A DNA stretch of 64,000 nucleotides from Amphiscolops sp. MND2022 (GCA_964187785.1 OZ076409.1:75208001-75272000); one strand, 5' to 3'. Positions 5,770 through 40,224 are shown, numbered from the stretch's first letter. Program-made: numbers and translations. Notes: a model not told the origin generated them from the letters alone.

Positions 5770-6593
5770 GTGGTCCGGGGCTTATTTTGCCCCACAAGAA
5801 ACTTTGCGAGGCCGGGGAGGGTCCCGATTGCCGAGCATCAGAAACCAGAAATACATCACTAGTCCACCGGGTCGGATTTCGGCGATTTTGGAATCTAACC
5901 ATACGATTTTAATAAAACTTTGCACACATACCTAAAATCAAATTATAAGAACTTTTTTCCCCTGACGTATCATCATTGAAACATTTGTTGAAAAGTTATG
6001 TGCAAATGATCGTGTTTTTTGGTACTTTTTCGCATTTTTCACACAATAGCTCCACACTTTACGCTATGCATTTGGCCCATTTTTTGCGTGCAAGGCAGTT
6101 ATGATGTCATGTTCACACATGCCAAAAATTATTTCTCAATTCGCAACAGGAGTGGAGATATGGCGGATAATATAGGCGGAAAATTTACCGAATACGAAAA
6201 TTTGCACATATTTGGCCAACATTTGTTTCAAAAATGAGAAAAATCAAAAGGTCCGCGGATTGCGTTGAAACTTGGCACACAGGTAGTAGAACAAATTCTA
6301 AGAACTTTTTTCTTCTGACATTTTTCCGAAAAATTGCATCTTTAACCTATATTTGCAATATTTTGGGTTTTTTGATTCAAGGTGATTTATCACTCACATA
6401 TTCAAAGTCCATTTTCAGCATGAAGCAACGCAGATACCGGCAATGTGCACATTTTAGAAAATCATCAACGACCAACGGTCTACCGAACGGTCCAAAAAAA
6501 TTTTGCCCTCGGGCCCAATCAAAGTGGCCAAAGGTGCCAAAATGTTTTTTCTAACAGTATCACCATTACAAAATTGATGATTTGACCAGGAGG

Positions 6594-7790: not shown

Positions 7791-9629
7791 GATATTACAT
7801 GGCGAACCGTGTTATTTTTCCAACAAAATTATGTTTTTGAGTGCCCGAAATTAGTTTTTAAAGCACAATAGCCACATAAAATGTTGTTTTGCATAACATG
7901 GGATGTGAATAACATGAAAAAAGTGCCCACTATGGGTTTGGGGTCATTTTGAAAAAATCAGCTGCCATTGGACGTTACACATCAGAAAATCATACCGCAC
8001 ATATCAATATATGGGTTGAGTGAAAAATAGCTTAAATGATTTTTCAGTCAATCAAGACCCTTTTTTGTTCACAACCACGTGTACAGCTGACGTTGAACGC
8101 ATATTGATCTTCCGCAATGGTTACATTACGATTTTGAGTGACAAAAGCCCCGTTGACAAACAAAATTCCAAGATAAAGTTTGTTTCCAAATCATTTTTTG
8201 ACGTATACGACCGCCAATTTCTGCCCACACACATCAATTATCCACTTCTCTTAGTCCAGTGGCATGTGAAAAACACAACTAGGCATTGACAATCCACATA
8301 CACTATAAATCGAGTAGTCATGGGCAACAATATTTACAAATCAGTAGTGAAATTTGTCTAAAATTGATAACACATAACAATTTTGTTGGAATCAAACTAG
8401 CAAAATGGAGGTTTATCAGCAACTTTTGGCTTTCACAGCAACCCACTGGCCCTGTAATATAGGAAAAGGGTGTTTACCGAACTTTTAAGGTTATATTTCA
8501 GAGTCTGAGGTAGCTAAAAGTATCATACTGAAGAGACGCATGACTTCAACTTCAGTATTTTTCCCGATGTGTCAGCACTTTTTTGGTATCGGCGGTCCCA
8601 CCAATATTGTTTTTGGTCTGACACTAAACCTTAGGATCAACCAAGGTGGATACCAGACTTGAAAAATCATTGCAAGGAATTTCGACATGTCAAAAGTAGT
8701 GATGACAGGAGATATTTCCCAAAAATTCCAGTTATTTGTCACGTTCCATTGTGCCTTTTTTAATCGGTCCTTGTCGGTTATGGTATTAACGCTCAACAAC
8801 AACCTCACTGACAACAAACAACTCGTTTATAGTTATAAAAAGTATTTATAATACAACCATGCTCGGTCTGGACAGGTTTTTCATCCCATTCGTTGTTAAC
8901 AAGCAAATTTTTTTTCCCAAAAACCCAATTTTTGTCAGGTCGAAAATTGATTTCCCGTGTTTTGAACAACATTATTGTGTCTGACGTAACCTGTGGCCTC
9001 CAAAATACTGAAAAACAGATATATGACTGGTATCAAATGCTTCATTGACATGTGAGCCACGATAACACGTTTTGCAAAGAAAAATTTAACTTTTAAGTTA
9101 AAATTTTGAAGACACATTTTCATAATAAAAACAAAATTCATAAAAAGTAACTTATTTCCCGTCAAATACTATTGATATACTATCAGTGTTGCTAATATGA
9201 GGTCTATACAGCGGTGTATGGGAAAAATGTGGCGCATAAAGCATTGTGTAACACAAAACTTTCCAAAGTACTGCGCATTTTTCACTGTACTTTTTGGACT
9301 CTATGACAAAAATTTGATAGTGTAAACATCAATGAGCAGTTCAATTTAGTACGATTATTCAACTGTGCATATGTTTCAAAGTGCACGATCTTTCTGTTGT
9401 TCCAAAATCCTTTGTTACGGCTGAAAAGATTCATATGTTTTACAACGCAATGTTCATTAAAAGATAAATTAGCAAAGACTGAATCAATATTACAAAAGCT
9501 AACAAACTTCTCAATACGTCTTTCAGTACTTGGATTTTGCAGACTATATAGATCTGATTTGCATTTTTATAAAGACATTATAACTGAATCTTGCATTTTT
9601 ATAAAGAACTTATAAAAAAAATTTCGTGA

Positions 9630-9668
9630 TAGCCTTCCAAGTTGGCCTTCGGCCAACTTGGAAGGCTA
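9630..9668. repeat. Perfect 18-bp inverted repeat (subterminal hairpin type B)
   Basis: TAGCCTTCCAAGTTGGCC-TTC-GGCCAACTTGGAAGGCTA. Related copies at 12769-12811, 23692-23735 and 62279-62322. Confidence 0.95.
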
Positions 9669-10669
9669 GCACTCCAAATACCAGAAAACAGGAGTTCCTT
9701 TATTCTCAAAATAGCTGTGGACAGTTTCATTCAACTTTCTTTTCTCACGTTAATTGATAAAATCAGAACATAAACATTTCCATTCGCTATAAGGAGATCA
9801 TAATTGAGTTCCATAAAAACATCTTTCATTGTGTCGCTTAAAAATACCATAAAAACAAACTTGAAACATATGAATTGTATGTGGAACGTACATTCTATTT
9901 ACCAGTGAGTGTCTACCCTTATTGGCTCCACCAAATCCTCTAACCCTCCACTAGACAGTACGTTACATCATACGTTGATGTATTTCACAGTGGTGACATA
10001 GGGCCAAAAAAAAACGAAATGGAGTGTATGCATTGCTAATGTTATTAAGTCAGCCAATTGTGGTAGGAAAGGTTCAATACTACGAAAAATATCTATTCCA
10101 ACTGAAAATGATTTGGGGCAAACACATGGAACACAAAAATACCTCAATAATTTTCACCAATCAATTTCTTCCACAAAAACTTTTGTGTCCGATGGTGTAT
10201 AATTTCCTAATTTGGAATCAGCCAGTCACGTCATTTTCACATCTCAGCTCGGTCATAACAGAGCGTTCTTTTTTGAAATTGTCTCTACCCAATTTCACGT
10301 AACGAGGCTGCTACGTCCCCTATTTGGAGTGTTATCAGTGTTTATAAGGGATTTATCACTCTAATGAACATATACTTCTAATGTTGAAACTCTTTCACTT
10401 TTCTTTGTAAATTGTTAAAGTAGAACATTGCTGTTATTCAGCAGGAACTCGCTTTGGCTTGCAGAATGATGGAAAATAAATGACAAGTCGCCCTGTAAGG
10501 CACCACGTGTCGTGGGGATGACAAATATGAAACAAGTTGAACACAACAAAGCCTACTTTTGTCAACAGAAGGGAAAACGAATATTTTAATTTTGAAAATT
10601 TTTATGTTTTTTAATACACATTTTCCTCGCATCTCGGCAGTGCAACTGCAACAACCTCGCCTCCACTGG

Positions 10670-11702
10670 GTGGTCACGGGTATACCCTACCACAATATTT
10701 GCGAGGTGGGGGAGGGGCCCCGAGTCCGAGCCATGCTGTCAGATTTCTATCTAGGATGAGGGGTCCAGAAAAACAGCGATTTTGGAATTGAGCCATACGA
10801 TTTGAATGAAACTTTGTGTGTGGGTAGATCTTAAAATTATAAGAACTTTTTCCCTCTGGCAAAACATGGTTGCAACACTGTGTTGGAAGTTATGAACAAA
10901 TGATCGGTTTTTTCACCTATTTTCGGCATATTTACGCCTCGGTACAACCAGCCTGTGGATACAATTGGCTGAAACGTTGCATGCGAGGCATAAATGAAGT
11001 GAAGTGTTTGCATGTCAAAAATCATTAGGCTGGTGACACTAGGCTGAGAGATAGAAGTGGAAAAAGAAGTGGAAAATTGTGAATTCTCCGGTCATTGCGT
11101 CATAACTTCCGAATTTTTGTATTGATGATGTTTCCTTCAGCGGTAGCAGTACTTTGGAGATGGTTTCATCATCACGTAGTGAGGATAAAAAATAAAAAAT
11201 AAAAAAGTTCTTCAAAAGTTCTACAAAAATTCTAAAATTTAAGAATTTTTCAAAAAAAAAAGATTTTCTCGTTTTTCGATGCTTTTTCACATTTTGAGTA
11301 CGAAAATGACGTAGCCCTGCACTTACGATCGCTATTTGAAGGATTTTCACATACCTCTTCCTCAATGTGTGGCCACTGTACAGAACTAATTGTTCTTTTG
11401 TTAGAAGTCCCGCCATTGTTTGCGGAAAAAGGTTCAAGAAACAACTTCTCCGTTGTTCCTGAGAAATGCGAAGCAGTTCGCAGGAACAACGGATAGAATT
11501 AACAAAGTACCCGGGTGGTTGGAATGAAAGATATGTAATCATCTGATAACTGATGAAAAACAGAGTTTTTCATCAGTTGAAAAGACGAAAAACGTTTCCA
11601 TGGATGTCACTCAAAGTGAACAGTACTGGTAGCGTATTTAAAAATATAATTCGACAGAAGCCGCCCGCCCACTCTGGTAATTAGTTTCCTTGCCTCCACT
11701 GG
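10670..11702 (+). mobile_element. Cassette 4 (1.04-kb family, no terminal core)
   Basis: 1033 bp. Homologous to 18738-19783, sharing the GGATACAATTGGCTGA block and the terminal TTGCCTCCACTGG|GTG. Confidence 0.55.
11449..11493. repeat. Subterminal hairpin type C
   Basis: TCCGTTGTTCCTG...CAGGAACAACGGA with an imperfect inner stem. Homologous hairpin at 19535-19584 (GTCACCGGTGTTCC...GGAACAACGGTGAC). Confidence 0.85.
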
Positions 11703-13091
11703 GTGGTCGGGTATTTTTTTTTACTCGTAGATGGCGTTTGCGAGGCTTTGGGGAGGGCCCCGTGCCGAGCCTGTACCGAAATTTACCACATACCAGAAGT
11801 GTCCGATTTAATCGAGATCTCAAAAACTAACCGTTAGAATTCTCTGAAATTTTGCATGTGGCCCCTAATCAATGAGTAATGAAAAAGTGTAGAAGTGACA
11901 GTTGCTGAAAAACTTGTCTTTGTTGCACTTTTTGCGCAATTTTTGTCGCATTGTTGCGTTTTTTATGTCATTTTCGACTTTTCAAGCAAAAAACTCATAG
12001 ATGCTTTGTTCCTAGCGTATCAAGTGTGGAGCACGAAAAGTTGCAGCAGCTTCCATTACGTATGCTGAGAAAATTTGGTTGCCCTCGGATTACCCCCCAC
12101 AGAGATAGAGGGGTGCATCCGGGTATTTTTGACCCCTAAATTTGGGAAATTGCTAATTTTCGTAATAAAGCCGTAGATTTAGCGCGTGCACACCCTGCTG
12201 AAGATTTGTTAGGCATTTTGAGATAGATCCGATGACATGCGTTGAGTTCACCCCCATCACCCCCTTGACCGGAAATGAACGTTTTTGTGCACTTTCAGAC
12301 CGGAAGTCTCCATTTTCACCGGTAAGGAGGCATTGTACGAGCAACTAGCAGGATATCAAAAGTGAAGTATAACCTGGGGTCAACTCAATGACCACGTGTT
12401 GTCCAGTCTTGGGTTTCGCTATGACCGGAAATTGGCTTAAAACCCCCTTTGGTGGTATTTTTAGCAATTTTCCTTGTGCTTGGTCCACATTCAAGTTGCG
12501 TAAGTCAGTTGAACCAGTGAGAGCATAAAATATATATTCACTGCGTAGTCGTAACTGACACTGCCAGATACCGGAAGTAACCCCCTGTGACCGGAAGAGG
12601 TCAATTTTGACCGGAAATGGTCCAAAAAGTAGCGTAAATGCAGTTTTCAATGCTTTTTAAGGTCAAATTATTAGTATTTTTCAATTTGAATGCTTTTTTC
12701 CACGCAAAAAGCTAACATCGTTGCATGTTTTGCTGAAGATCGGAAAAGTGATCACCATTATCACCCCCGATAGCCTTTCAAGTTGACCTTTGGTCAATCT
12801 TGAAGGCTATCTGTTCTGAAAACGAAAAATAGTGGAATTTTGTTTCCTCCTTTCTCTTGATATTTTTCCTTCAAGTCAATTTGTCAAAAGAAAGACATTT
12901 GTTCAACTAAGTGTTCTGAAACCTGTCCAGAGGTGTCACCCGGACGAATACCATTTCAAGCTGAAGTACACAAATCAGGGTAGTATTAGACATCACACAC
13001 TCCTACCAACTCCCACCGTCTGTGGGCATGCCGAGGCATGCCTTTCGACGACGTATGCCAAATAGCGCTACAGGGCGCCCACATTTGCTAG
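11703..13091 (+). mobile_element. Cassette 5 (1.39 kb)
   Basis: 1389 bp. Hairpin B at 12769, core at 13007-13053. Interior shared with cassettes 18-20. Confidence 0.55.
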
Positions 13092-16000
13092 GTGGAGGTT
13101 ATTTTATAATAATTAAAGTGTTTTTTTCCGGAGTTTGTGGCTTTGGAAAAAACAAAAGGCGAGAAATTGGGCACTCCGGGCTGAACCGTATACACTCAAA
13201 ATTCGCCCAATATTTATACGATCTCGAAACCCAGCCGTACGATTTGGCTGAAAATTTGCATGCGGCTAAAAAATCAGATTCTAAGAACTATTTCCTGCTG
13301 ACATTTTTTTGAAATTTTTGTGTACGTTTCCCCCCCGCCCCCTAAAGGGGTCAATTTTCCCCAATTTTGCACTTATGAGCCAAATTCTCAAAACTGGTGG
13401 ATCTGAGCGTATTCCCGGCGGGGTCAACTTTTAACGCGCGCTCCTCAGTAGACCTTTTTGACTTTTAACTTTGGTGGTACGTTCACCCCCCGAGGAGGAA
13501 ATGGCGTTTTTGTGACTTCCGGTCGAGGCTTTTTTCACCCAAAAAATAGAATTAAGCCAATTTTGAGCAGGAAGGAGTGGATTTAAAGTGCCTGTACCCT
13601 GCTAAAAATTTGTTGGGCTTGTAGCGATATATCTCATACCAAGTCTGGTTTTCACCCCCAAACCCCCCTTGGGACCAAAATTCACCCAAACTTTTTTTAC
13701 CTCTGTTTGTAGTTTTTTTTGCAAAATGTCGTCATTTCCATGGGTAAGGAGTTGAATTAGGGGCTCCTAATAGGGTACCAATGTTCAAGTACACTTGCAG
13801 TGCAACTGAGTGACCCTTTTGGGGCCTCTCCTGTGTTCGGCGAGGACCGGAAGTGGTGTAAACCCCCCTTTTTTGACGTTTGTTGACCTTGAGACTCGCG
13901 CTTAGATGACGTTTATGTCGCGCAAATCCTACAAACCAGTATTAGGATGACATGCTAGCCTACTAGAGAGCACTAAGGGAAACTATACTATACCGGAAGT
14001 AACCCCCCGTGACCGGAAGTTGTCATTTTTGACCGGAAATGGTCCAAAACATAGCGTAAAAGCAGTTTTCATTGCTTTTAAAGTCAACTTATTACTTTTT
14101 TCAGTCTGCGCGAGCTTGTCTTCAGATTCGTTTTTGTTGTCCGTGCACACTACAACAAATATACATCTGTAGAACTTTTGCTATAATATCGTCGGAGAGA
14201 GAAATAACGGGTTTTCGGAATTTTTTTCAAAAATGTTTGTCTATATCTATCATTTTTACCCAACGTTATTCAACAGTAGAACCACAGGGGTTAGTATCTG
14301 CCAAAATATATGCCTAACAAAACCACTCGTCCCATTGGTTGCAGTTTGAGCGTTCTAGCTTTGCCTGGTCACAAGTTGAGGGACTTCAAAAAGTTTCAAA
14401 TTTTTTTGGAAAATTTTTTTTAAACGTCACGTCTCCCAAAGTTAAGAATTTTCCACACAACTAGGATTGCAAGAGAATGCACATGGTAAGACCTATAAAT
14501 GGAGAGAAAAATTCCGTTCAGAACGTCTCTTTATCGTTACGTGACGTTAAAAGATGTTGCTTTGAATGTGAATTTGATAATGCGTCGAGAAGTAAAAGAG
14601 TGTGAATGGATCCTATGTCTCGACAAATACTCATCGCAATACATACGATGAACCCCAATTACCCTCACTTTCAGTTGGCTAGTACATCAGCGTCTTCCAA
14701 GGACCGTTTACCTATTTAAAAATTGTCAAATTCATTATTAATATCAGTTAGCAAGAAATATTTGAGTACATTGTCATCTCTCCCCATCGGGTGAGATGAG
14801 AATGTTCTTGCTAAAAGTCAAGTACTACGGCCCATTTTTGTTTTATTGCGACGTTTTCTGTGCCTTAGCACAAGGATACTTTTATGTCATCTCACTTTTG
14901 TTATACAATCTGACTTGTTGTTATAAAATTCTCGTCATTACTTTACCTAAACTTACTACCATGCATCTTTAACGTCAAAGCCAAATTCATTTAGACGCCC
15001 ACCATTCCGTAGGTATGCCGAGGTATGCCTTTCGAAGAAGTATGGCAAAACACAAACGGGCAAATGAAAAGGGCTGAAATTCAGAAACAGTCACAAACAA
15101 TTTTGACTATTTGACCGATGGTAGGTTTTTATATGGAACTTACACATCACTGACATTTCAAAACATTCCAGCTGACGCCCACTTACAAACATCAACGCCC
15201 ACGGTCCGTGGGCATGCCGAGGCATGCCCTTCGACGACGTATGGCAAATACCTTTTACGACGTCCCAACTTTCCCTAGGTGGAGGTTATTTTATAATAAT
15301 TAAAGTGTTTTTTTCCGGAGTTTGTGGCTTTGGAAAAAACAAAAGGCGAGAAATTGGGCACTCCGGGCTGAACCGTATACACTCAAAATTCGCCCAATAT
15401 TTATACGATCTCGAAACCCAGCCGTACGATTTGGCTGAAAATTTGCATGCGGCTAAAAAATCAGATTCTAAGAACTATTTCCTGCTGACATTTTTTTGAA
15501 ATTTTTGTGTACGTTTCCCCCCCGCCCCCTAAAGGGGTCAATTTTCCCCAATTTTGCACTTTTTAGTCAAATTCTCAAAACTGGTGGATCTGAGCTTTTT
15601 CCCGATGGGGACAACTTTTAACAAGCGCTGTTCAGTAGACCTTTTTGACTTTTTACTTTGGTGGTACGTTCACCCCCCAAGGAGGAAATGGCGTTTTTGT
15701 GACTTCCGGTCGAGACTTTTTTCACCCAAAAAATAGAAATAAGCCAGTTTTGAGCAGGAAGGAGTGGATTTAAAGTGTCTGTACCCTGCTAAAAATTTGT
15801 GGGGCGTGTAGCGATATATCTCATAGCAAGTCTGGTTTTCACCCCCGAACCCCCCTCGAGACCAAAATTCACCCAAACGTTTTACCTCTATTTGTGGTTT
15901 TTTCACAAAATGTCGTCATTTCCATCGGCAAAGATTTGAATTAGGGGCTCCTAATAGGGTACCAAAGTTCAAGTACACTTGGAGTGCAACTGAGTGACCC

Positions 16001-17464
16001 TTTTTGGGCCTCTCGTGTGTTCGGCAATAACCGGAAGTTGTATAAACCCCCCTTTTTTGACGTTTGTTGACCTTGAGACTCGCGCCTAGATGACGTTTAT
16101 GTCGCGCAAATCCTACAAACCAGTATTAGAATGACATGCTAGCCAACTAGAGAGCAATAAGGGAAACTATACTATACCGGAAGTAACCCCCTCTTGACCG
16201 GAAGTTGTCATTTTTGACCGGAAATGGTCCAAAACCTAGCGTGAAAGCTGTTTTTCATTGCTTTTAAAGTCAACTTATTACTTTTTTCACTCTGCGCGAG
16301 CTTGCCTTCAGGTTCGTTAGTGTTGCCCGTACACACTGCAACAAATATACATCTGTAAAATTTTCGCTATAATATCGTCGGAGAGAGAAATAACGGGTTT
16401 TTGGGTTTTTTTTTTCAAAAATATTAGTGTTTATCTGTCATTTTTACCCAACGTTATTGAACAGTAGAACCATAGGGGTTAGTCTTCGCCCAAATATATG
16501 CCTAACAAAAGCACTTGTCCCATTGGTTGCAGTTTGGGCGTTTTAGCTTTGCCTGGTCACAAGTTAGGGGACTTGAAAAACTTTCAAAATCATTTCCGAA
16601 ATTTTTTTCTAAACGTCACGTCTCCCAAAGTTAAGAAACTTCCTCACAACTAGGACCGCAAGTGAATGCATGTGGTTAGACCTATAAATGGAGAGAAAAA
16701 CTCCGTTTAGAACATCTCTTTATCGTAACGTGACGTTAAGAGATGTTGCTTTGAATGTGAATTTGATAATGCGTCGAGAAGTAAAAGTGTGTAAATGGAA
16801 CCTTTGTCTCGATAAATACTCCTCGCAATACATGCGATGAACCCCAATTACCCTCAGTTTCAGTTGCTTAGTACATCAACGTCTTCCAAGGACCTTTTAT
16901 CTATTTTGAAAATGTCGAAATCATTATTAATATCAGTTATCAAGAAACACATGAGCACATTCTCATCTCTCCCCATCGGGTGAGGTGAGAATGTTCTTGC
17001 TAAAAGCCAGGTACTACGGCCCCCTTTTGTTTTAATACGATGCATTCTCTGCTTTAGCTCATAGATATTTTTTTTCGCCTGATTGTTTGTATACTCTCTG
17101 ACTTCTTGTTATAAATCTCTCGTCATTACTTTACATAAATATACAACCAAAAATCATTATCGTCAGCGCCACATACATTTAGACGCCCACCATTCCGTAG
17201 GTATGTCGAGGCATACCTTTCGATTACGTATGTCAAAACGCAAACGTGATAAAAAGTGCTGGAAGTCTCAAACAGTGACAAACAAATTTGACTACTTGAA
17301 ATATGGGAGGTTTTTATATGGAACTTACACATAGCTGACATTTCACAACTTTGCAGCTGACGCCCACATGCCAACATCAACGCCCACCGTCCGTGGGCAT
17401 GCCGAGGCATGCCCTTCGACGACGTATAGCAAATCCCTTTCACCGACGCGCACTCTCCCGCTAG
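13092..17464 (+). mobile_element. Cassettes 6 and 7 (2.18-kb family, tandem pair; boundary 15278/15279)
   Basis: 2187 and 2186 bp with near-identical left ends. Cores at 15193 and 17378, each preceded by a degenerate second core about 200 bp upstream. Confidence 0.6.
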
Positions 17465-18737
17465 GTGGTCGGGAATTTTTTTTCTGCTCAAATCTTTGCC
17501 GCTGGGGGAGGGGCCCCTTGCGGCTGCTGTTCGGTTTTACTACCTACCAAAACCTGCTTTTTTTTTCACGATCTCGAGAACCACCCGTACGATTTTCCTG
17601 AAAATTTGCATACAGGCTTAGAATCAAATCCTAAGAACTATTTCCTACTGGCGTTTTTCCGAATTTTTTCAAAAAGTTGGTCAAAAACGCAACAAAAGTT
17701 GCCAATGGACATAAAAAACGCAACTTTTCGACTTTTAGGGCTCATAACTTTTTCCAGAGTGCCCGGAGCGACCCGTGTGCATCGGACACTTTTGTTCAGC
17801 ATTCTAGGAAGAGTGCGTGGGCAAATTTTCGTTTAAATCGGACAAAAATTGACTGAGAAATTAACGCAAATTTTGGTGCATTTTTTGCGAAGACTAGTCT
17901 ATCTCTGCCATTTTCGCCCAAAATTTTTCCCAGAGCTTTTACAGGAGGCAACCCCTGCCCAAATTTCTGCCGAGCAAACCCATTTGGCCCTAAATACGAG
18001 GTTTCAGCGTTCTAGCATTTCCGGGCAAAAAGTTGTGGGACTTAGAAATTTTTCAAAAAAATGCAAAAAGTGTAAAAAGTAACTTCCGGCGTCCCAAAGT
18101 CAAGAAACTTTCACACAACTAGTATTGCAAGTGAATGCATGTGGAAAGTACTTGGATAGACGAGAAAAATGAGCTATTATAAACCTCTGTAGCTTAATCT
18201 GACGTTGACTTATGACATTTTGAGTGTGAGCATCCTATAGGATTTTAATGTCAAAAATGAGATTTTGTAAGTCATGTCTCATCAAAAACTCGTCGGAATA
18301 CGTTCAATCATCCCCATAGCTGTTCAAGTACTGTGACTTAGTAGAGCAACGCCATTTAATGTCCTTGGACCCATTTTGAAAATTTTCGTTATCGTCTTAT
18401 TCGTCCGATATCCCGAAACAGTTGAGTACATTCCATCTCTCCCTTAAGGGGGAGATGAGAATGTACTCGCCAAACACCTGACACAATGGCCCATATTGGT
18501 TTTTATTTGACCTTTCTCAATGATATTACACACGGATAGCTGTGTTTGGTAAAAGTTTTCCATTGCACCATGTCTCCAGAAGCTAAACCACTTCTTTAGC
18601 CTACTACTTCTACTCAAACATCACTAACGTCAATGCCACATACTCGCATCAACGCCCACCGTCCGTGGGCATGCCGAGGCATGCCCTTCGACGACGTATG
18701 CCAAATAGCGCCACCTGGCGCCCCCAATTTCCGCTAG
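17465..18737 (+). mobile_element. Cassette 8 (1.3-kb class)
   Basis: 1273 bp. Hairpin A at 18424-18468, core at 18650-18696. Right half closely matches the right half of cassette 36. Confidence 0.6.
18424..18468. repeat. Subterminal hairpin type A (representative copy)
   Basis: GAGTACATTC-CATCTCTCCC-TTAA-GGGGGAGATG-A-GAATGTACTC. Present in the 1.3-kb and 2.18-kb cassettes, e.g. 14764, 16953, 25657, 26927, 28215. Confidence 0.92.
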
Positions 18738-19783
18738 GTGGTCCGGGGTAGTTCCCCACATTATTTAGTGCGAGGCCGGGGAGGGTCCCGATGCCGAGCT
18801 TAATTTTCGCGTGTCGTACTATATCCTTTAGCACACCAGTCAAAAAACGGCGATTTTCGAATTGAACCGATAAAACTTCTTTAAACTTTGCATGTGTACT
18901 TATCTTGCCGATGTAAGAATGATGTTCTGCTGGTCAAACATGATCCTATTACTTGGCGGGAAGTTATGAGCAAATGATCGGGTTTTTCACCCAATTTCGG
19001 TACTTTTTCGCTGCGATATCTGCAGCATGTGGATACAATTGGCTGATACTTTGCATGCGAGGCATTAATGATGTCAGGTGTTTGCATGCCAAAAATCATT
19101 AGGCTGGTGATACTAGGCTGAGAGATAGAAGTGAACGAAGTAACAGAAATTTGTGAATTTTCCTGTCATTGCGTCATAATTTCCGAACTTTTATACAAAT
19201 GATGTTTCCTTTAGCGGTAGCAGTACAGTCGATGTGTTTTCAACATCACGTGGCCAGGATAAAAAATTAAAAATAAAAAAGTTCTACAAAAGTTCTCCAA
19301 AAATTCTAAAAATTGCGAATTTTTTCAAAAAAAAAATTTTTCGGGTTCCATTGTATTTTTATACCAGGAATTCAAAAATCACATTATTTATCGTGTCAAC
19401 GGCGCCAAAATGGGTTTATTTTTAATATTGACCGCTTTCACCAGCTTGATATACCAGTTTCAGTAAGTATTTGAAAAATACTCAGGGTTGAGGCAAATGC
19501 ATAAGTAGCACGATTTTAAAACGTAATTTTATTTGTCACCGGTGTTCCGAGGGATGCACAGCAGCACGCAGGAACAACGGTGACCCGGAAGGAAGGCTGT
19601 AGATACTTGTTACGACCGAAGGCAGTCACTGTTTAGTTTTGTTCGACATGATTATGTACGTCGTTGCGATGTGCATCAGCAAAAATTCACATCAGTGACC
19701 CCAAAGTGGAACAAGTTATACATGAATTGAGAACAGACAGTACCGTTCGGCCCCCTGGTAATTGGTAGCTTTGCCTCCACTGG
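18738..19783 (+). mobile_element. Cassette 9 (1.04-kb family, no terminal core)
   Basis: 1046 bp. Diverged homologue of cassette 4, with hairpin C at 19535-19584. Confidence 0.55.
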
Positions 19784-22700
19784 GTGCGCCGGGGTGTTGT
19801 CCCCAGCCCTTTCCGCCGGCGAGGGTAGGGTTCCCTTCGCCGGCTTGAACTTCGCGAAGCCAAGCTTACGTATTAGCAAACATGCCCCCTAAAAAATGCG
19901 ATCTCGAAAATGAACCGTCAGAACCGGCTAAATTTTTGCATGCACCCATATTTTGGGAAGACAAGAATTTTTTTCTGCTGACGTTTTGCCGAAAAAATAT
20001 TCGGTCATGCCGAAATACCGTATTTTTTGAAGATAAAAGGGATAAATTTGTTGGTATATAAAGTTTACCTTTAATAACTTTTACACGGTGCACGCTAGCC
20101 CAATGATGCATACTAACAAAAAGTTGTGAAGTGTGGCGCGTCGAATGATGGTGCCAAAAAAGTGCCGATCGGGGCACTCAAAGTGCCAAAAAATGCCAAA
20201 ATGTTAAGTATCACCAATATCACCTAGGCTTATAGGTCAATTTGAGCACGTTAAACGGTCCGAACGGTATCGGACCAAAAGATCAAAAATTGTCAGCATT
20301 CAATGAGGGTTTCAAAAATGTAGTTTATACACGTGTAGGATTCATATTAAAAAAGTCGATTTTTTTGAGTGTATGGCATGATGAGCTAGGATGAAATTTT
20401 TTATAATGTACATTCCATTAAAGTACTCACTATGCAGCACCAGTAGCAGCGGAAGTCATATTTATGAAAAAGATCAAGGGGCTGGGGTCTACTCACGGTA
20501 CTATCGCAAAATAGGCCTGGGGCAATAGTGGTGCCAAAAAATGCCTTATAGTGAGGAATGATTTTTTTGTAAATCAGCTCATATTTCGATACGTGTGACT
20601 TCCTTGTCAACAACGGTCCGCACGGTCTCTAACAATATAACCAAAAATTGTCAGTGAGCTATTGTGACGACCAAAATGACATCGGTTGACCTCTAAGAGG
20701 CCTCTGGAAAAATTTGATTTTTTTGAGTCACGGTCCGAGTTGATCTGTTACGTTGTATGAACATTTCATATTCATGTTACTCATAACTGAGTACAGATAG
20801 CACCGTGGGTCACCTTTATCAAAATGAACATGGGGCAGCGGTCTAACGACTGAGTGCAAACATCATACCTTAGTTGCCACAGTGAAAGGAAAAAATTTTC
20901 AGAAGTGTTCTTTTCAATTTTTTATGTCGACTCGCAGTTACAAAAATGTGATTTTCTCTTCAGCAACGGTCAGAACGGTCTCGGACCATAAGATAAAAAT
21001 TTGTCAGTGTGATATGGTGGCACCCAGAAACACATCAGAACACTGGTAGGAAGCTTCTGAACGATTTTCGAATTTTCACGTGGGTCCGAGAGTTATAGTG
21101 TCACATCGTAACTACATTTCGGGTTTGCATATATCCTCACAGAGTACAGATAGCATCATGGGTCACCTTTTCGAAAAAGAACGTGGGCCACTGGCCTATC
21201 GATTTGTCATAAAAAGTTTTCAGTCACTGCTGCACGGCGTGAATAATATGCCAATATGGGGTATTTAGCATTTTTCTGTACGACTCGGACCTACAAAAGG
21301 CCCATTTCTGCTCCACCAACGGTCTGTACGGTCATCGACCATAAGGTCAAAAAGTGTCAGTGTGCTATGGTGACGCCCAAAAACTTATCAGTACACTTGT
21401 ATAGTGCTTCTGAAAAAGTTTGGATTTTTTAGGTTAGTCCGAGAGTTATGGAGAGTTATGTTGTCACATCGAAACTACATTTCGGGTATGTATATCTCCT
21501 GACAGAGTACAGAAAGCAACATGGGTCATCTTTTGGAAAGTGAACGTGAGCCAGTGGCCTACCAATTGGTGACAAAAAGTTTTCATCACTTGGTACAGGG
21601 AGTGGAAAAAGTGCTTACATGTGTTACATAGCATATTTTCAGGCGACTCGGACTTACAACAAGCTCATTTGCTGGCGAACAACGGTCTGTACGGTCTCCG
21701 CTCAGATGGTCGAAATTTTATCGTGAGCTATAGTAACGCCCAAAAACGTATCAGTTTACCTGTAGTATGATTCTTTAAAATTTTAGTGTTTTCGCGCTGA
21801 CTATGTTAGATATGTCATTGGGAACCGCGTTCTTTTCCTATCGAAATCGTGTTTTTGACTGCCCAAAAACAGTTTTTAAAGCTCAAAAACCACATAAAAT
21901 CTTGTTTTGCATAACATGGGATGTGAATACCATGAAAAAAGTGCCAACTGTGGGTTTGGAGTCATTTTGAGAAAATCAGATGCCATTAGACGTTACACAT
22001 CAGAAAATGATATTCCACATATCAATTTATGGGTTGAGTGAAAAATAGCCCAAATGAGTTTTCAGTCAATTAGGACTCTTTTTTGTTCACAACCATGTGT
22101 ACAGCTGACGTGGAACACATATTGACCTTCCACAATGGATATATTGCGATTTTGAGTGACAAAAGCCCCGTTGACAAACAAAATTCCAAGATAAAATTTT
22201 TTTCCAAATCTTTTTTTGATGTATAGGACCACCAAATTTTGCTCACAAACATCAACTATCCATTTCTGTTAGACCAGTGGCATGTGAAAAACACAACTTG
22301 GCATTGACAAGCCACTTACACTATAAATCGAGTAGTCATGGGCAACAACATTTGCAAATCAGTTGTGAAATTGGTCAAAAATTGATAAAACATCACAATT
22401 TTGGTGGAGTCAAACTAGCAAAATTGAGTTTTATCAGCAACTATTGGCTTTTAAAGCAATCCACTGGCCCTGTAAAATAGGAAAATGATGATTACCGAAC
22501 TTTTAAGGTTACATTTCAGAGTCTGACTCAGCTAAAAATATCATACTGAAGAGACGCATTACTACAACTTCAGTCTTTTTCCCGTTGTGTCACCACTTTT
22601 TTGGTATCGGCGGTCCCACCAATACTGTTTTTGGTCTAACACTAAACCTGAGGATCAACCAAGGTGGATACCAGACTTGAAAAATCCATGCAAGAAAATC

Positions 22701-24683
22701 GACATGTCAAAAGTTGTGATGAGGAGAGATATTTCCCAAAAATTCGTGTTATATGTCACATTCCATTCCACCTTTTTTAATCTGTGCTTGTCAGTTATTG
22801 TGTTAACGCTCGTCAACGATCTCACTTACAGCCAACGAGTCGATTACAGATGTAAAAAGTTTTAGTAACGCCTGTTTCCTCGTTCTTGACACATTTTACA
22901 TCGCGTTCGTACTTAACATAAAATATTTTTTCCTCAAACACCCAATTTTCGTCAGGTCGAAAATTGAATTTCTGTCTTTTGAGCCTAATTTATGTGTCTG
23001 ACGGAACCTGTGGCCGCCAAAATACCTAAAAACAAAAGTGTGATTGGTATCAAGTGCATCAGTGACATATCAGCCACGAAAAAACGTTTCGCGAAGACAA
23101 TTTCAACTTTGAGGTGAAAATTTGGTAGACACATTTTCACAGTAAAAACAAAATTAATGAAAGAATTACGTCTTTCCTGTCAATGACTATTAATATAGCA
23201 TCAGTGTTGCGAATTTGAGGTCTATAGAGAGGTGTATATAAAAAAATGTGGTGCAAAAAGCATTGTGTAATACCAAATTTACCAGAGTACTAACGAAATT
23301 CCACTATATTTTTTGCACTTTATATCAAAAATTTGGTAGTGTAAACCTTAATCAGCAGTTCAATTCAGTAGTTTCATTCAACTCTCCATATGCTTAATTT
23401 GTTTCAAAGTGCTTGATCTTTCCGTCATTCAACACTATTTTGTTACGGCTTAAAATAGTCATACCGTTTAAGACGCATTCTTCATTAATAGATGTGATCG
23501 TTTTTCATTACCAAAGACTGATTACTGATTCACCTTTACGGTAGCTAACCAAATTGTCAATAGGTTCAAAAGCTCTCATTACTTAGACTTTTCAGACTCT
23601 ATAGATTTGACAACCTACTCACATTTATAACATTTTTGTAGGAATGACATTGAACCATGTTTTTTGGAAACAGCTGATAACTGCATCTTGTGATAGCCTT
23701 CCAGGTTGGCCTTGTGTCAACTTGGGAAGGCTATCACTACAAAAAACAAAAAACCAGGAGTTCGTTTTGATGGGATTTTCCGGTTGATTATTTCATTCAA
23801 CATTCTATTGTCCCAGTAGTTGATACTTATGGTCAACAGACATTTTTCAGAATCCGTTAACCAAAATTAAAGGGCAAAAAATACATTTTTTTTGTTTCTT
23901 TTGCGGATTCAACTTGAATTTCGTGAATTTTTTAAGTACTGTTCAATCACAAAAAATTTTATACACCCCTGTTAGCTTCACAAAGCCACCAGCTACCTCC
24001 ACATGACAGTACAACGTTAGTTCCTCTGTTTAATAAGGCTTTCATTAGTGGTGTCATAGTGTCGAAAACAAATCACATGGAAATATACATGGATATAGAC
24101 AAACATCATCAAGTCGTGCTGGGAAATGTTCAGTATAAATGTCGTTCTCCCACTTAAAACTCTTTACAGAAAATCTTCTTTCCTTATTTTAGACAATTCA
24201 TAAAACATAGAAAAGATTTCCAACAACGTTTCTTAGACATAAATTAAACTTATATGAGGAATACAAAAATCAAAACATTCCGCATGTTAGCTGGGTCAGA
24301 TTTGTTCATTTTTTCCGTAGACAGATTACCGCACCCACCACTTTCAACGCCAATTTCACCCAATATTTGGAGAAACAAAATGTTCACGATTCAGACACAT
24401 TCCTATGAGGGAAAATTGACCAATTACCACAATTCAATGTATACCGTGGATTCTGCCAATGACGGTGCTTCTTTCCACTAATAAAGAGCTAGGACTATCT
24501 TTGCTTTCTTTCGACAACAGTTACCATTAACGATCCATTGGTAATGTGATGACATGTATCATTCAATCACAAACAACATTTCTCCAATACATGTCTTACG
24601 CTGGACGTAGTTAAGAGATCATTCTATCTTGCCTACCAAACGTTTATCACATCTAGTGCTTAGAGTTGAGCTGCCATCGCTAG
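19784..24683 (+). mobile_element. Cassette 10 (4.90-kb family, no terminal core)
   Basis: 4900 bp. Diverged homologue of cassette 3, with left hairpin at 19815-19844 and hairpin B at 23692-23735. Confidence 0.55.
20254..21800 (+). repeat. Internal tandem subrepeat of about 353-363 bp
   Basis: The AACGGTCnGnACGGT motif recurs at 20254, 20612, 20965, 21318 and 21681. Confidence 0.85.
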
Positions 24684-33690: not shown

Positions 33691-36600
33691 GTGGAGGTTA
33701 TTTTATAATAATTAATGTGTTTTTTTCCGGAGTTTGTGGCTTTGGAAAAAACAAAAGGCGAGAAATTGGGCACTCCGGGCTGAACCGTAAAGGCCGATTT
33801 TATACTGTAAAAAACGCCCATTCTAACTACGATCTCGAAACCCAGCCGTACGATTTTGCTGAAAATTTGCATGCGGCTACAAAATCAGATTCTAAGAACT
33901 TTTTTCTGCTGACTTTTTTTTGGAATTTTTTTGTACGTTTCCCCCCCGCCCCCTAAAGGGGTCAATTTTCCCCAATTTTGTACTTATGAGTCATATTCTC
34001 AAAACTGGTTGATCTGAGAGCAATCCTTGTGGAGAGAACTTTTGTAGAGCGCTCTTCAGTTGACTTTTTGGAGTTTTTACTTTGGTGGTACGTTCACCCC
34101 CCACAGCGGAAATAGCGTTTTTGTAACTTCCGGTCGAGCAATTTTCCACCCAAAAATTAGAATTATGCCAGTTTAGAGCACGAAGCAGTAGTTTTAGCGT
34201 GTTCACACTCTCCTGAAGTTTTGTTGGGCGTATTGAGATAGACATGATATCAAGTGTTCAGTTCACCCCCATCACCCCCTGGACCGGAAATGAACTTTCT
34301 TTTTTCCCCTTTCTTACAGGAAGTGTCGATTTTCACCGGTAAGGAGTCCTTGTACGAGCAACTAGCAGGGCATCAAAATTGACGTACCACCTGGGGTCAA
34401 CTTAGTGAACACGTGTTGTCCAGTCATGGGTACCGCCATGACCGGAAATGGGGTCAAAACCCCCCTTTTAGTTGTTGTTTTATCAATTTGACTAGTGTTT
34501 GGTCCACATTCAAGTCGCGTAAAACAATTGAACCTGTGTGAGCATAAACTGCATGTTCACTGCGTAAACGTAACAGACACTGCCAGATACCGGAAGTAAC
34601 CCCCCGTGACCGGAAGTTGTCATTTTTGACCGGAAATGTTCCAAAAAATAGCGTAAATGCAGTTTTTCACTGCTTTTTAAGGTCAAGTAATTACTTTTTT
34701 CAATCTGCACGAGCTTGTCTTCAGGTTCGCTTTTGTTATCCGTGCACAGCGCAACAAATATACATCTGTAAAATTTTCTCTATAATATCGTCGGAGAGAG
34801 AAATAACGGGTTCTTGGGGCTTTTTTAAAAAAATAATAGTCTATATCTGTAATTTTTGTCCAAAGTTATTCAACAGTACTACCACAGGGGTTAGTCTCTG
34901 CCCAAATACATGCCTAACAAAACTATTTGTCACATTCGTCTCAGTTTGAGCGCTCCAGCTTTGCCTGGTCATAAGTTAAGTGACGTAGAAAATTTTCATT
35001 TTTTTTTCAAAAAAAATTTCTCGCCTTCAGTTCCTCCAAAGTAAAGAAACTTCCTCACAACTAGGATTGCAAGTGGATGCATGTCGCAAGCCCTATAATT
35101 GAAGCACAAAAAACCGCTTAGGACGTCTCTTCATCGTAATTTGACGTTAACGTATGGTGCTTTGAATGAGAGCTTGCTAAGGGGTCGAGAAGTCAAAGTA
35201 TGTAAATGGAACGTATGTCTCGTCGAAAAGTCATCGGAATACATGCAATGAACCCCAATTGCCCTCAATTGCAGCTGCCTAGTGCAACAACGTCTTTCAG
35301 GGACCTTTAACCTATTTTTATTTGTGTCAAAACTATTTTAAGTTCAGTTAGCAAGAAACACTTGAGTGCATTCTCATCTCTCCCCAGCGGGTGAGATGAG
35401 AATGTTCTTGCTAAAAGCCAGGTACTACGGCCCACTTTTGTTTTAATGCGACGCATTCTCTGCTTTAGCACATAGATATTTTTATTTCGCCTGATTTTCT
35501 GTATACACTCTGACTTGTTATTATGAGTTCCTCGTCAATACTTCACATATATTTACAATCATCAAACGTTATCGTCAACGCCAAATAGATTTAGGCGCCC
35601 ACCATTACGTAGGTATGTCGAGGCATACTTTTCGATTACGTATGTCAAAACGCAAACGCGATAAAAAGTGCTAAAATTCAGAAACAGTGACAAACAAATT
35701 TGACTATTTGACATATGGGAGGTTTTCATATGGAACTTACACATAGCTGACATTTCACAACATTGCAGCTGACGCCCACATACCAACATCAACGCCCACT
35801 GTCCGTGGGCATGCCGAGGCATGCCCTTCGACGACGTTTGCCAAATACCCTTTACCGACGCGCACTCTGCCGCTAGGTGGATGGTATTTTATAACAATTA
35901 AAGTGTTTTTTTCCGGAGTTTGTGGCTTTGGAAAAAACAAAAGGCGAGAAATTGGGCACTCCAGGCTGAACCTAAAAACACCCTAAAATTCGCCCGATTT
36001 TTTTACGATCTCGAAACCCAACCGTACGATTTGGCTGAAAATTTGCATGTGGCTCCTAATCAATGAGTAATGAAAAAGTGTAGAAGTGACTTTTCCTGGG
36101 AAAATTGTTTTTGTTGCACTTTTTGCGCAATTTTTGACCGATTGTTGCGTTTTTTATGTCACTTTCGACTTTTCAGGCAAAAAACTCATAGATGCTTTGA
36201 TCCTAGCGCATCCAGTGTTTCGACCAAAAAGTTGCAACATGGTCTTTTACGTACGTTGTGAAAATTTGGTAGCCATCGTATCACCCCCCACTGAGTTAGA
36301 GGGGAACTTCCGGTGGATTTTAGCACCCTAAAAACAAGGACCTCCTAAACTTCAGCATGAAGCCGTAGTTTTAGCGTGCTCATAACCTGCTGAAGTTTTG
36401 TTGGGCATGTTGAGATAGTCATGATAGCATGTGTTTAGTTCACCCCCCATCACCCCCTGGACCGGAAATGAACTTTTTGTGCACTATCATTCCGGAAGTC
36501 TCCAGTTTCACCGTTAAGCAGTCCTTGTACGAGCAACTACCAGGTCATCAAAATTGAAGTACCACCTGAGGTCAACGTAGTGACTACGTGTTGTCCAGTC

Positions 36601-39600
36601 ATAGGTTCCTCTATGACCGGAAATGGGGTCAAAACCCCCTTTTTTGGTTGTTTTTTAACAATTTGACTAGTGTTTGGTCCACAATCAAGTCGCGTAAGTC
36701 CATTGAATCAGTGAGAGCAGAAATTGTATGTTCACTGCGTAGACATAACTGACTCTGACAGATACCGGAAGTAACCCCCCGTGACCGGAAGTTGTCATTT
36801 TTGACCGGAAATGGTCCAAAATAAAGCGTAAAATCAGTTTTTCACTGCTTTTTAAAGTCAACTTATTACTTTTTCAATCTTCGCGAGCTTGTATTCAGAT
36901 TCGTTTGTGTTACCCGTGCACTTTGCAACAAATATACATCTGTAAAGTTTTCTCTATATTATAGTCTGATAGAGAAATAACGTGTTTTTGGGACTTTTTT
37001 CAAAATTATTAGACTATATCTGTCATTTTGACCCAACGTTATTCAACAGTACAACCACAGTGGTTAGTCTCTGCCCAAATATATGCCTAACAAAACTATT
37101 TGGCCCATTGGCCTCAGTTTGAGCGTTCCAGCTTTGCGTGTTCATTAGCTAAGGGACTTGAAAAATTTTCAAACTTTTTCAAAAAAAATTTTTCTCATAT
37201 TTTTGTCTCCCAGAGTGAAGAAACTTTCACACAACTAGGATTGCTACTGGATGCATGTGGCAAGCCCTATAATTGAAGGGAAAAATTCCGCTTAGAACGT
37301 CTCTTTATCGTAACTTGACGTTAACGTATGGTGCTTTGAATGAGAGCTTGATAAGAGGTCGAGAAGTCAAAGTGTGTGAATGGAACGTATGTCTCGTCGC
37401 AAACTCATCGGAATACATGCAATGAACCCCAATTGTCCTGAATTGCAGTTGCCTACTGCAACAACGTTTTTCTGGTACATTTTACTCTTTTTCATAAGTG
37501 TCAAAATTAGTTTTAAATTCAGTTAGCAAGAAACAATTGAGTACATTTTCATCTCTCCCCAGCGGGTGAGATGAGAATGTTCTTGCTAAATGCCAGGTAC
37601 TACGGCCTCCTTTTGTTTTATTGCGATGCATTCTCTGCTTCAGCACATAGATATTTTATTTCGCTTGATTGTTTGTATACTCTCTGACTTGTTATTATAA
37701 ATTTCTCGTCATTACTTTACATAAATTTGCAACCATGAAACGGTATCGTCAACGCCACATACATTTAGACGGCACCATTCCGTAGGTATGTCGAGGCATA
37801 CCTTTCGATTACGTATGTCAAAACGCAAACGCGATAAAAAATGCTGAAAGTCTGAAACAGTGACAAACAATTTTGACTATTTGACATATGGTATGTTTTT
37901 ATATGGAAGTTACGCATCACAGACATTTCACAACTTTCCAGCTGACGCCCACATACCAACATCAACGCCCACCGTCCGTGGGCATGCCGAGGCATGCCCT
38001 TCGACGACGTATGCCAATTTCTATATATCTACACCCAATTGCGGTAGCAGCTAGGTGGATGGTATTTTATAACAATTAAAGTGTTTTTTTCCGGAGTTTG
38101 TGGCTTTGGAAAAAACAAAAGGCGAGAAATTGGGCACTCCAGGCTGAACCTAAAAACACCCTAAAATTCGCCCGATTTTTTTACGATCTCGAAACCCAGC
38201 CGTACGATTTGGCTGAAAATTTGCATGTGGCTCCTAATCAATGAGTAATGAAAAAGTGTAGAAGTGACTTTTCCTGGGAAAATTGTTTTTGTTGCACTTT
38301 TTGCGCAATTTTTGACCGATTGTTGCGTTTTTTATGTCACTTTTGACTTTTCAGGCAAAAAACTCATGGATGCTTTGATCCTAGCGCATCCAGTGTTTCG
38401 AACAAAAAGTTGAAGCATGTTCTTTTACGTATGTTGTGAAAATTTGGTTGCCATCGTATCACCCCCCACTGAGATAGAGGGGAACTTCCGGTGGATTTGA
38501 GCACCCTAAAAACGAGGACATCCTAAATTTAAGCATGAATCCGTAGTTTTAGCGTGCTCATACCCTGCTGAAGTTCTGTTGGGCATATTGAGATAGTCAT
38601 GATATCATGTGTTCAGTTCACCCCCCATCACCCCCTGGACCGGAAATGAACTTTTTTCGCACTATCATGCCGGAAGTCTCCAATTTCACCGTTAAGCAGT
38701 TCTTGTACGAGCAACTACCAGGACATCAAAATTGAAGTACCACCTGAGGTCAACGTAGTGACTACGTGTTGTCCAGTCATAGGTTCCGCTATGACCGGAA
38801 ATGGGGTCAAAACCCCCTTTTTTGGTTGTTTTTTAACAATATGACTAGTGTTTAGTCCACATTGAAGTCGCGTAAGTCAATTGAACCAGTGTCAGAATAA
38901 ACTGTATGCCCACTGCGTAGACGTAACTTACACTGACAGATACCGGAAGTAACCGCTTGTGACCGGAAGTGGTCAATTTTGACCAGAAATCGTCCAAAAA
39001 GTAGCGTAAAAGCAGTTTTTCACTGCTAACTAAGGTCAAAGTTTTACATTTTTCAATCTGCGCGAGCTTGTCTTCAGGTTAGTTTTTGCCGCCCGTGCAC
39101 AGTGCATCAAATATACATCTGTTAAAATTTCTCTATAATGTCGTCGGGGAGAAATAACGGGTTATTGGGACTTCTTCCAAAAACATTAGTCTATATCTGT
39201 CATTTTTACACAAAGTTATTCAACAGTACAACCACAGCGGTTAGTCTCTGCCCAAATTTGTGCCTTACAAAACTATTTGGCCCATTGGTCTCAGTTTGAG
39301 CGCTGCAGTTTTGCCTTGTCATAAGTTAAGGCTCCTAAAAATTTTTCAAAAATCTTTCAAAAAAAACTTCTCAACTTCAGGTTCCCCAAAGTAAAATTTC
39401 CACACAAGTAGGTTTCAAAATGGATGCATGTGGGAAGCCCTATATTTGAAAAGAAAAATGCCGCTTAGAACGCCACTTTAGCGTAACTAGACGTTAACGT
39501 ATGGTGCTTTGAATGAGAGCTTGATAAGGGGTTGAGAAATCAAAGTGTGTAAATGGAACGTATGTCTCGTCGAAAACTCATGAGAATACATTCAATGAAC

Positions 39601-40224
39601 ACCAATTATCATCAATTGCAGTTGCCTAGTGCAAAAACGTCTTTCAAGGACAATTTATTCGTTTTCCTAACTGTCCAAATTGCTTTTAAATTCAGTTAGC
39701 AAGAAACAGTTGAGTACATTCTCATCTCTCCCCATAGGGTGAGATGAGAATGTTCTTGCTAAAAGCCAGGTACTACGGCCCACTTTTGTTTTAATGTGAC
39801 GCATTTTGTGCTTTAGCACATAGATACTTTTATTTCGTCTGACTTTTCGTAGACACTCTGACTTGTCATTATAAATTTTTCGTCATTACTTTACATAAAC
39901 TTAATACCATACAACTTTAACTTCAACGCCACATACATTTAGACGCCCACTATTCCGTAGGTACGCCGCGGCATGCCTTTCGACGACGTATGTCAAAACG
40001 CAAACGCAATAAAAAGTGCTGAAATTCAGAAACAGTGACAAACAAATTTGACTACTTGAAATATGGGAGGTTTTTATGTGGAACTTACACATAGCTGAAA
40101 TTTCACAACATTGTAGCTGACGCCCACATGCCAACATCAACGCCCACCGTCCGTGGGCATGCCGAGGCATGCCCTTCGACGACGTATAGCAAATCCCTTC
40201 CACCGACGCGCACTCTCCCGCTAG
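33691..40224 (+). mobile_element. Cassettes 18-20 (2.18-kb family)
   Basis: Starts at 33691, 35877 and 38055; lengths 2186, 2178 and 2170 bp. Degenerate second cores at 35593, 37767 and 39941. Confidence 0.6.

Follow-up and report, generated by a model that had tools for sequence, protein, structure and literature searches.

Each 2.18-kb cassette in this array carries a second copy of the core about 200 bp before its right end, which raises the question of whether an older right end lies inside it and, if so, how the present one was acquired. We addressed this across the window, by which we mean the whole 64,000-nt stretch of Amphiscolops sp. MND2022 DNA that was analyzed. A reading made beforehand from the sequence alone (the sequence-only reading) had regarded the elements as Helitrons, with a decayed core and a CTRR tetramer marking an old terminus that had been read through.

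The window is occupied by cassettes set head to tail. The + strand carries the motif CT[AG]GGTG[GC] 37 times and the - strand once, with 4.2 occurrences expected, and the 37 + strand junctions partition the window into units of 1.0-4.9 kb. The neighbours of every unit are other cassettes, all 37 junctions read G then G, and the window holds no insertion into unique DNA. Units start with (G)GTG (37/37) and end with CTAG (32/37) or CTGG (5/37), with G as the fourth base of the tetramer at all 37 junctions. A left-end motif of ~200 bp is common to all of them, its 37 strong profile hits being the 37 unit starts. Upstream of 33 of the 37 junctions lies an 18-bp palindrome, the core, which starts 58-73 bp before the C of the tetramer (most frequently 59 or 65 bp, seven ends each).

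Seven pairs of whole units are 96-99.9% identical; both neighbours differ in six of these pairs, and only the upstream neighbour in one. Near-identical units have 4-7 bases in common upstream of GTG in seven of the eight pairs examined. The tail that follows the core tracks the body upstream of it (Mantel r 0.52, 0/2000 permutations) and, more weakly, the next left end (r 0.18, 10/2000 permutations). Because near-identical units have different neighbours and the tail tracks the upstream body, the CT[AG]G/GTG junction is a true unit boundary, and the cassettes move from one CTRG/GTG junction to another as entire, non-coding units. We rejected a minus-strand Helitron reading of the array because under it the unit that the variable junction base tracks would be the downstream one.

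Four junctions (10666, 11699, 19780 and 24680) lack a core although their units share the left-end motif, so the core is dispensable for array membership. Two coreless units of 1.04 kb carry a different hairpin ~250-260 bp upstream of their end. Internal tandem repeats are present in some units (363 bp in the 4.9-kb units, 6947-7762 and 21088-21755; about 505 bp in the 1.98-kb unit, 61030-61920), resembling those of many non-autonomous rolling-circle elements. At 32 of 37 junctions AG is followed by GT, as at a splice junction, and the remaining five read GG then GT; most have no pyrimidine tract, and the likeness is probably a coincidence.

In a Pfam scan of 26 of the 54 window frames of at least 100 aa, no match reached the cut-off and no transposase, RepHel or recombinase was seen; a sub-threshold match to LINC-PINT (17.8 bits, cut-off 27) was set aside. 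Rfam returned no matches over the window at gathering score. Among sequence collections, the core pattern was found in no viral contig and no genome contig but in one metagenome contig (L001); the left-end pattern was absent from viral and genome contigs, and the hairpin A pattern from viral contigs. Positions 1-1172 of L001 carry hairpin A, a core and the left-end motif, and are 58-61% identical to the short units over ~840 bp, so the family occurs outside this window. L001 starts with GTGCTG and has a CGC 9 nt upstream of its end; the junction (880-887) reads CGAG followed by GTGC, so the end tetramer is variable at its second base.

The long cassettes and their parts are laid out as follows, with a short cassette for comparison.

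13092..15278, + strand: long cassette A, 2187 bp, from GTG to CTAG; the feature under study lies in its last 286 bp
15279..17464, + strand: long cassette B, 2186 bp
33691..35876, + strand: long cassette C, 2186 bp
35877..38054, + strand: long cassette D, 2178 bp
38055..40224, + strand: long cassette E, 2170 bp
14764..14808, + strand: hairpin A of cassette A (starts in B-E: 16953, 35364, 37539, 39712)
14970..15050, + strand: inner (putatively old) pre-core and core of A, palindrome at 15012, A...T stem-end variant
17200, 35612, 37785 and 39960, + strand: inner palindromes of B-E
15074..15077, + strand: inner CTGA of A, candidate old terminus
17259 (CTGG), 35671 (CTAA), 37844 (CTGA) and 40019 (CTGA), + strand: inner tetramers of B-E
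40005..40007, + strand: CGC, a motif found in the tails of real ends, here 11 nt upstream of the inner CTRR of E
35657-35659 (C) and 37830-37832 (D), + strand: CGC 11 nt before the inner CTRR; B has CGT and A none
15078..15278, + strand: added block of A, comprising a ~85-bp spacer, pre-core, intact core, tail and CTAG
17263-17464, 35675-35876, 37848-38054 and 40023-40224, + strand: added blocks of B-E, 201-207 bp
15211..15228, + strand: outer intact core palindrome of A, G...C stem-end variant
17396, 35808, 37981 and 40156, + strand: outer palindromes of B-E
15275..15282, + strand: present junction CTAG/GTG(G) of cassette A, one of 37 CT[AG]GGTG, all on the + strand
17465..18737, + strand: 1.27-kb cassette, an example of the short form ending after the orthologous core

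The five long cassettes are 74-90% identical to one another. A core profile run along the + strand returned exactly the 33 intact cores and five inner ones; the inner cores (E 7e-8 to 3e-13) are far beyond chance and lie where the sequence-only reading had placed its five degenerate cores. That reading had also put them some 196-200 bp before the intact core, and the measured palindrome-to-palindrome distances are 199, 196, 196, 196 and 196 bp. Its third spatial claim, that the inner core follows hairpin A at the spacing seen in 1.3-kb units, agrees with our measurements as well: 246-248 bp in the long cassettes and 230-254 bp in 24 short units (243-254 bp in 22 of them), with 248 bp in L001. 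Furthermore, long-unit positions ~1100-1958 align with short-unit positions ~390-1260 at 58-65% identity, and the alignment stops just past the inner core. Since both this colinearity and the hairpin A spacing put the inner core where short units have their terminal core, they support its predicted identity as the positional homologue of the terminal core in the 1.27-kb cassettes, that is, as the old subterminal core that had been proposed. By the core profile, no fossil core is present in units 60765-62742 and 11703-13091 or in the 4.9-kb units.

All pre-cores (15168-15210 and the others) contain two short direct repeats resembling TCAACGCC, about 20 bp apart, which possibly serve as protein-binding repeats. 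The second repeat is altered in the inner cores, and the first in the outer cores of the long units.

Does an old terminus follow the inner core? The five inner CTRR tetramers are where they had been reported, with the coordinates marking C, and none is followed by GTG. Their C lies 62, 59, 59, 59 and 59 bp from the start of the inner palindrome in A to E, compared with 58-73 bp at real ends. By itself, the inner CTRR is nevertheless weak evidence for an old end and near chance. A CTRR occurs in 10,447 of 61,813 background windows of 16 sites (17%), and in each copy a 112-bp stretch of the added block contains three. As the five long copies are descendants of one ancestor, the inner CTRR counts once rather than five times. 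Its fourth base is A in four of five copies, whereas G occupies this position in all 37 real junctions, and CTGA, the commonest inner tetramer, is found at none of the 37. On the array's own right-end profile, the inner sites score -4.2 to +1.5 bits (background probability 0.22-0.87) and real ends 5.2-12.6 bits. In maize Helitrons with multiple 3′ ends, intact CTAG is missing at 99 of 100 internal ends, according to the available part of the report (PMC3288121); given such damage, a non-standard inner tetramer is expected if the old end had to fail.

A second tail motif is more informative. Of 24 distinct real tails, L001 included, 22 have a CGC 6-12 nt from the end; at the inner sites, three of the five copies (C, D and E) have it 11 nt upstream of the CTRR, with CGT in B and nothing comparable in A. 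CGC and CTRR occur jointly in 977 of 61,813 background windows (1.6%, or 0.9% with a preceding G), a figure whose weight we discount because the CGC test was chosen after viewing the alignment. Through the CGC motif and the 4.9-kb case described below, the inner CTRR is quite probably an old terminus, as the sequence-only reading had it, though the tetramer to which that reading had appealed is itself near chance.

A second internal end occurs in the 4.9-kb family.

9945..9954, + strand: internal end CCTCCA-CTAG in the 4.9-kb unit 5770-10669, followed by ACAG; its C is 323 bp after hairpin A′ (9628)
23996..24005, + strand: homologous site CCTCCA-CATG in the 4.9-kb unit 19784-24683, 310 bp after hairpin A′ (23692)
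9955..10669, + strand: 715-bp extension with in-register homology to the 3′ portion of the 1.04-kb cassettes
24006..24683, + strand: 678-bp extension, homologous in register to unit 18738-19783
18738..19783, + strand: 1.04-kb coreless cassette, which with 10670-11702 represents the donor family of the 4.9-kb extensions

Hairpin A′ is common to the two 4.9-kb units and to units 11703 and 60765, and in unit 11703 a real junction lies 319 bp after it. The motif CCTCCACTRG occurs four times in the window, where 0.10 is expected and none of 100 shuffles reached four; three of these sites are the real CTGG ends of coreless units, and the fourth is the internal 9951 site. Alignments of the extensions with the 1.04-kb cassettes score 66, 46, 39 and 57, with 0, 0, 2 and 0 of 200 shuffles as high. 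In one example, the segment 434-278 bp before one end aligns with that 425-280 bp before the other; BLAST gives E 1.7e-5 for this comparison of extensions and cassettes, at low identity. The 9951 site is, on these alignments, an apparent old end joined to a sibling without roughly its first 330 bp, with the limits that CTAG is present in one of the two copies and that the 55 bp upstream of it are unremarkable (equalled or exceeded by 105 and 308 of 5750 tiles). The 4.9-kb family repeats the layout of the 2.18-kb family, with an identifiable donor, and in both families no GTG left-end base follows the old end. Helitron-like internal pseudo-3′ termini with a damaged tetramer are present in the array, as the five inner ends and the 9951/24002 pair.

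The two 4.9-kb extensions have ~150 bases in common and then diverge, one ending in CTGG and the other in CTAG. Hairpin A′ (at 9628, 12769, 23692 and 62279) is unrelated in sequence to hairpin A. In unit 11703 some 320 bp separate it from the end, a placement like that of hairpin A in short units; in the other three units the distance is 460, 988 and 1038 bp. The larger distances suggest further end extensions; none was traced in 60765-62742.

These sites also bear on where a unit ends. At intact junctions, the third base (A/G) tracks the unit before it and the eighth base the unit after it, so the break lies between these two bases, and the invariant GGTG is unassignable to either side. The sequence-only reading had taken the inner sites as support for CTRR as right end and GTG as the next left end. 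By themselves, those sites do not fix this boundary: with A as the fourth base in four of five, they would, if read without mutation, place the break after the third base (CTR). Better support for the boundary comes from the 9951 site, which keeps CTAG followed by ACAG and favours CTRG/GTG; that division is the likelier one.

We consider it likely that each long cassette was formerly a shorter one whose old right end (core, CGC and CTRR) became joined to the last ~200 bp of a sister. Our main reading, to which we assign a probability of roughly 0.55, is end extension onto a 5′-truncated sibling, probably by nick-defined rolling-circle read-through. The layout itself is plain in both families; from two independent joins directly after an end-like tetramer we infer a nick after CTRG and a one-ended rolling-circle logic. 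Under such a scheme, an HUH-type process would start at the universal GTG left end and stop by a nick after CTRG. If an old end came to be placed inside or beside a 5′-truncated sibling, the composite could be copied from its own GTG left end as far as the intact CTAG of the sibling. Once the junction was lost and the inner hairpin had decayed, the long form would be fixed and would then spread as a single unit. The enzyme may well be an HUH nuclease encoded elsewhere in the genome, an assignment that we lean towards slightly.

The most serious alternative, though clearly less probable, is that deletion or unequal recombination in the array fused two cassettes. A deletion from the tail of one cassette to ~200 bp before the end of its neighbour would remove the junction; no end would have been bypassed, the CTRR would be a product of chance or of the donor, and a tyrosine recombinase working at the shared junction could be what mobilises the cassettes. 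The cassettes are indeed mosaic. Unit 11703-13091 has about 890 bp at 82% in common with the left part of D and E (35877-40224) but an unrelated right part and another right end, and at long-unit positions ~200-400 A, B and C differ from D and E by over 50%; the long unit is pieced together from at least three modules. The outer core-to-CTAG tails (15246-15274, 38016-38050 and homologues) fall into three types among the five long units, with a mean distance of 0.32, and D's tail ends like that of the 1.29-kb family; these differences suggest exchange at or near the core. The 17% chance of a CTRR and the background-level end-profile scores also suit a fusion, as does the unassignable GGTG, given that Cryptons have 4-6-bp terminal direct repeats in the available part of their description (PMC3212892). 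A fusion leaves unexplained, however, why CGC stands at the right distance, and why in two families nothing of the ~200-bp left-end motif survives at a join that immediately follows an end-like tetramer.

The state of the inner core bears on a further alternative. Across the five long copies, the inner core has 13 variable columns out of 50 and the outer core 4 out of 51; hairpin A, still conserved, has 6 of 45, the spacer 20 of 84 and the body 246 of 655. The inner core is more variable than the outer (Fisher p 0.018), while its difference from the cassette body is not significant (p 0.13). Its stems fold at -2.2 to -6.8 kcal/mol, compared with -8.2 to -12.9 kcal/mol for the 33 intact cores. 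On both measures the inner core is degenerate, as the sequence-only reading had described it. The five copies share only three core positions that depart from the intact core; at the time of their split the core was therefore still almost undamaged, and most of the decay came later.

Two observations speak against pure decay: five of six stem changes in the five copies keep + strand pairing (four G-T, one restoring T-A), and the spacer, which has no indels, is more conserved than the body (20/84 vs 246/655, p 0.015), as is the whole block from inner to outer core. The inner core might accordingly be a retained second hairpin or binding site, a proposal that is compatible with end extension and that we regard as improbable. 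Five of six is not a significant excess (about 0.1 by our estimate if half of transitions keep pairing), the folding energies are half those of intact cores or less, and recent homogenisation beside the outer core would also reduce diversity.

GTG stands immediately upstream of the inner CTRR at three of the five sites, and MAFFT aligns these GTGCT sequences with the junction GTG. The inner motif might then be an old left end (GTG-C...), left over from a following cassette or from a ~206-bp mini-cassette whose upstream CTAG has gone. On the left-end profile, position 17256 scores 7.2 bits (background 0.024) and 40016 scores 3.9 bits (0.10), and L001 offers a left end of this form. Yet the other three sites fall below zero on the same profile, the lost CTAG would sit at 52 (real minimum 58), where the sequence reads AAAA, and no left-end motif lies downstream; we hold this explanation to be very unlikely.

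Least probable, and largely refuted, is a local tandem duplication of ~197 bp around the core with later divergence: two cores in direct orientation 196-199 bp apart invite it, and the hairpin A-to-core stretch turns over fast enough between families that an old duplicate could vanish, but the spacer resembles the region upstream of the inner core at shuffle level, the inner pre-core and core are nearer to other families' ends than to their own outer ends, and with only three shared core changes a duplicate should remain visible. This was the case that the sequence-only reading had itself set against its proposal. In comparisons of the spacer with the region upstream of the inner cores, 48-59 of 60 or 29 of 60 shuffles scored as high, as did 310-1275 of 1500 in another run. 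The closest matches of the inner pre-core and core are ends of other families (77% to 62666), with the cassettes' own outer ends ranking 23rd-28th of 34 at 68-69%; stem closure likewise differs, being A...T in the inner and G...C in the outer core.

The origin of the added block lies beyond what the window holds. A spacer profile found only the five copies across the 64 kb (next E 0.11), and neither a donor of the ~200-bp block nor a short form ending at the inner CTRR is present there. We rejected the region after hairpin A of unit 17465-18737 as a source of the spacer: the match is weak (3 and 6 of 1500 shuffles as high in two scorings, 161 of 1500 in a third) and ranks third of 980 window tiles, behind unrelated ones. 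A condensed copy of the cassette's own hairpin-A region was rejected too, at shuffle level, and no short repeat emerged within the spacer (equalled by 38-555 of 2000 shuffles). Nowhere in the window, the stretch upstream of the inner core included, is there a match to the added block.

A broader and more tentative proposal, which we put forward as possible but doubtful, is that the array consists of undescribed eukaryotic HUH-type cassettes. Such cassettes would begin with GTG and finish with C(T/G)RG, and their insertions would be confined to each other's junctions, which would yield mixed arrays like those of integrons; the left end would be universal, and right ends would turn over by read-through onto 5′-truncated sisters, with the 2.18-kb and 4.9-kb units as two independent records. 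If this is true, it names a cleavage site (after CTRG) and a target, testable once an autonomous partner is found, and adds a self-targeting, array-building group to the eukaryotic HUH transposons. We found no description of a mixed self-targeting cassette array in the literature; the family may already be catalogued in Repbase/Dfam, which lay outside the search. A fossil end is unsurprising in itself and is valuable for what it may say about mechanism in an array for which no enzyme was seen; of greater interest is the array itself, unclassified and apparently targeting its own junctions.

Among known systems, Cryptons, including CryptonV, resemble the array in having no terminal inverted repeats (TIRs), as described in the available sections of PMC3212892 and PMC8869645. 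The shared junction sequence could be a 4-7-bp recombination core, and integration at a regenerated site would yield shuffled arrays. In contrast to Cryptons, the third junction base of the array travels with the upstream unit, no recombinase was seen, and internal ends without GTG would be unexpected from site-specific recombination. CryptonV targets are reported in those sections as microsatellites, unlike the array's.

Replitrons, in the portion of PMC10288648 available to us, are HUH elements with short direct terminal repeats and orientation-specific insertion after RG; they have a right-end palindrome, and right ends carrying downstream sequence, as in the array. The array junctions are compatible with RG followed by GTG, for which repeat and target are indistinguishable from junctions alone. 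Replitrons are reported as dispersed copies in plants, algae and protists, and that portion describes no mixed head-to-tail arrays. The array further differs in its precise ends, and no Rep gene was seen.

Helitron2/Helentron (HLE2) elements include non-autonomous forms with internal tandem repeats, like the 363-bp repeats of the 4.9-kb units, and the telomere-targeting Helitrons of Paramecium show target-specific, single-orientation insertion, as does the array (available parts of PMC11417382 and PMC13085455). Unlike these groups, the array has no short TIRs, T/T target or telomeric repeats at its junctions: comparison of each left end with the reversed right 60 bp scores 10-23 (2 per match, 36 units), with 32 of 36 at or below 16, and the junctions are G/G. 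Target-specific telomeric Helitrons (PMC13085455) and short single-family Helitron tandem arrays (PMC12001565) have both been reported; the accessible text of these papers contains no account of mixed arrays that target themselves.

The closest parallels to the internal ends come from canonical Helitrons. The sections at hand describe maize helA (PMC3288121) and bat Helraiser/Helibat (PMC4778049) as having, like the array, no TIRs, a right end CTRG with an upstream hairpin, a conserved left end with exchangeable right ends, and an old end within the element, its tetramer damaged, that leads into the 3′ portion of a relative. In bat Helitrons, new 3′ ends arise through insertion next to 5′-truncated copies and through bypass (PMC4778049). 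The Helitron label given to the array by the sequence-only reading nonetheless fails. The canonical (HLE1) definition includes 5′-TC and an A/T target in the accessible text of PMC11417382, and neither is found at any of the 37 junctions; the left end is GTG rather than TC, and the junctions are G/G between cassettes, never A/T host sites. The array's conserved hairpin, the palindrome that starts 58-73 nt before C, ends ~40 nt rather than ~11 nt before the unit end, and a GC hairpin 9-12 nt before the end occurs in some tails only. Four of 37 array ends have no core, the relative L001 ends with CGAG, and no RepHel was seen. Internal pseudo-3′ ends, known in Helitrons, are found here in a non-canonical, unclassified family.
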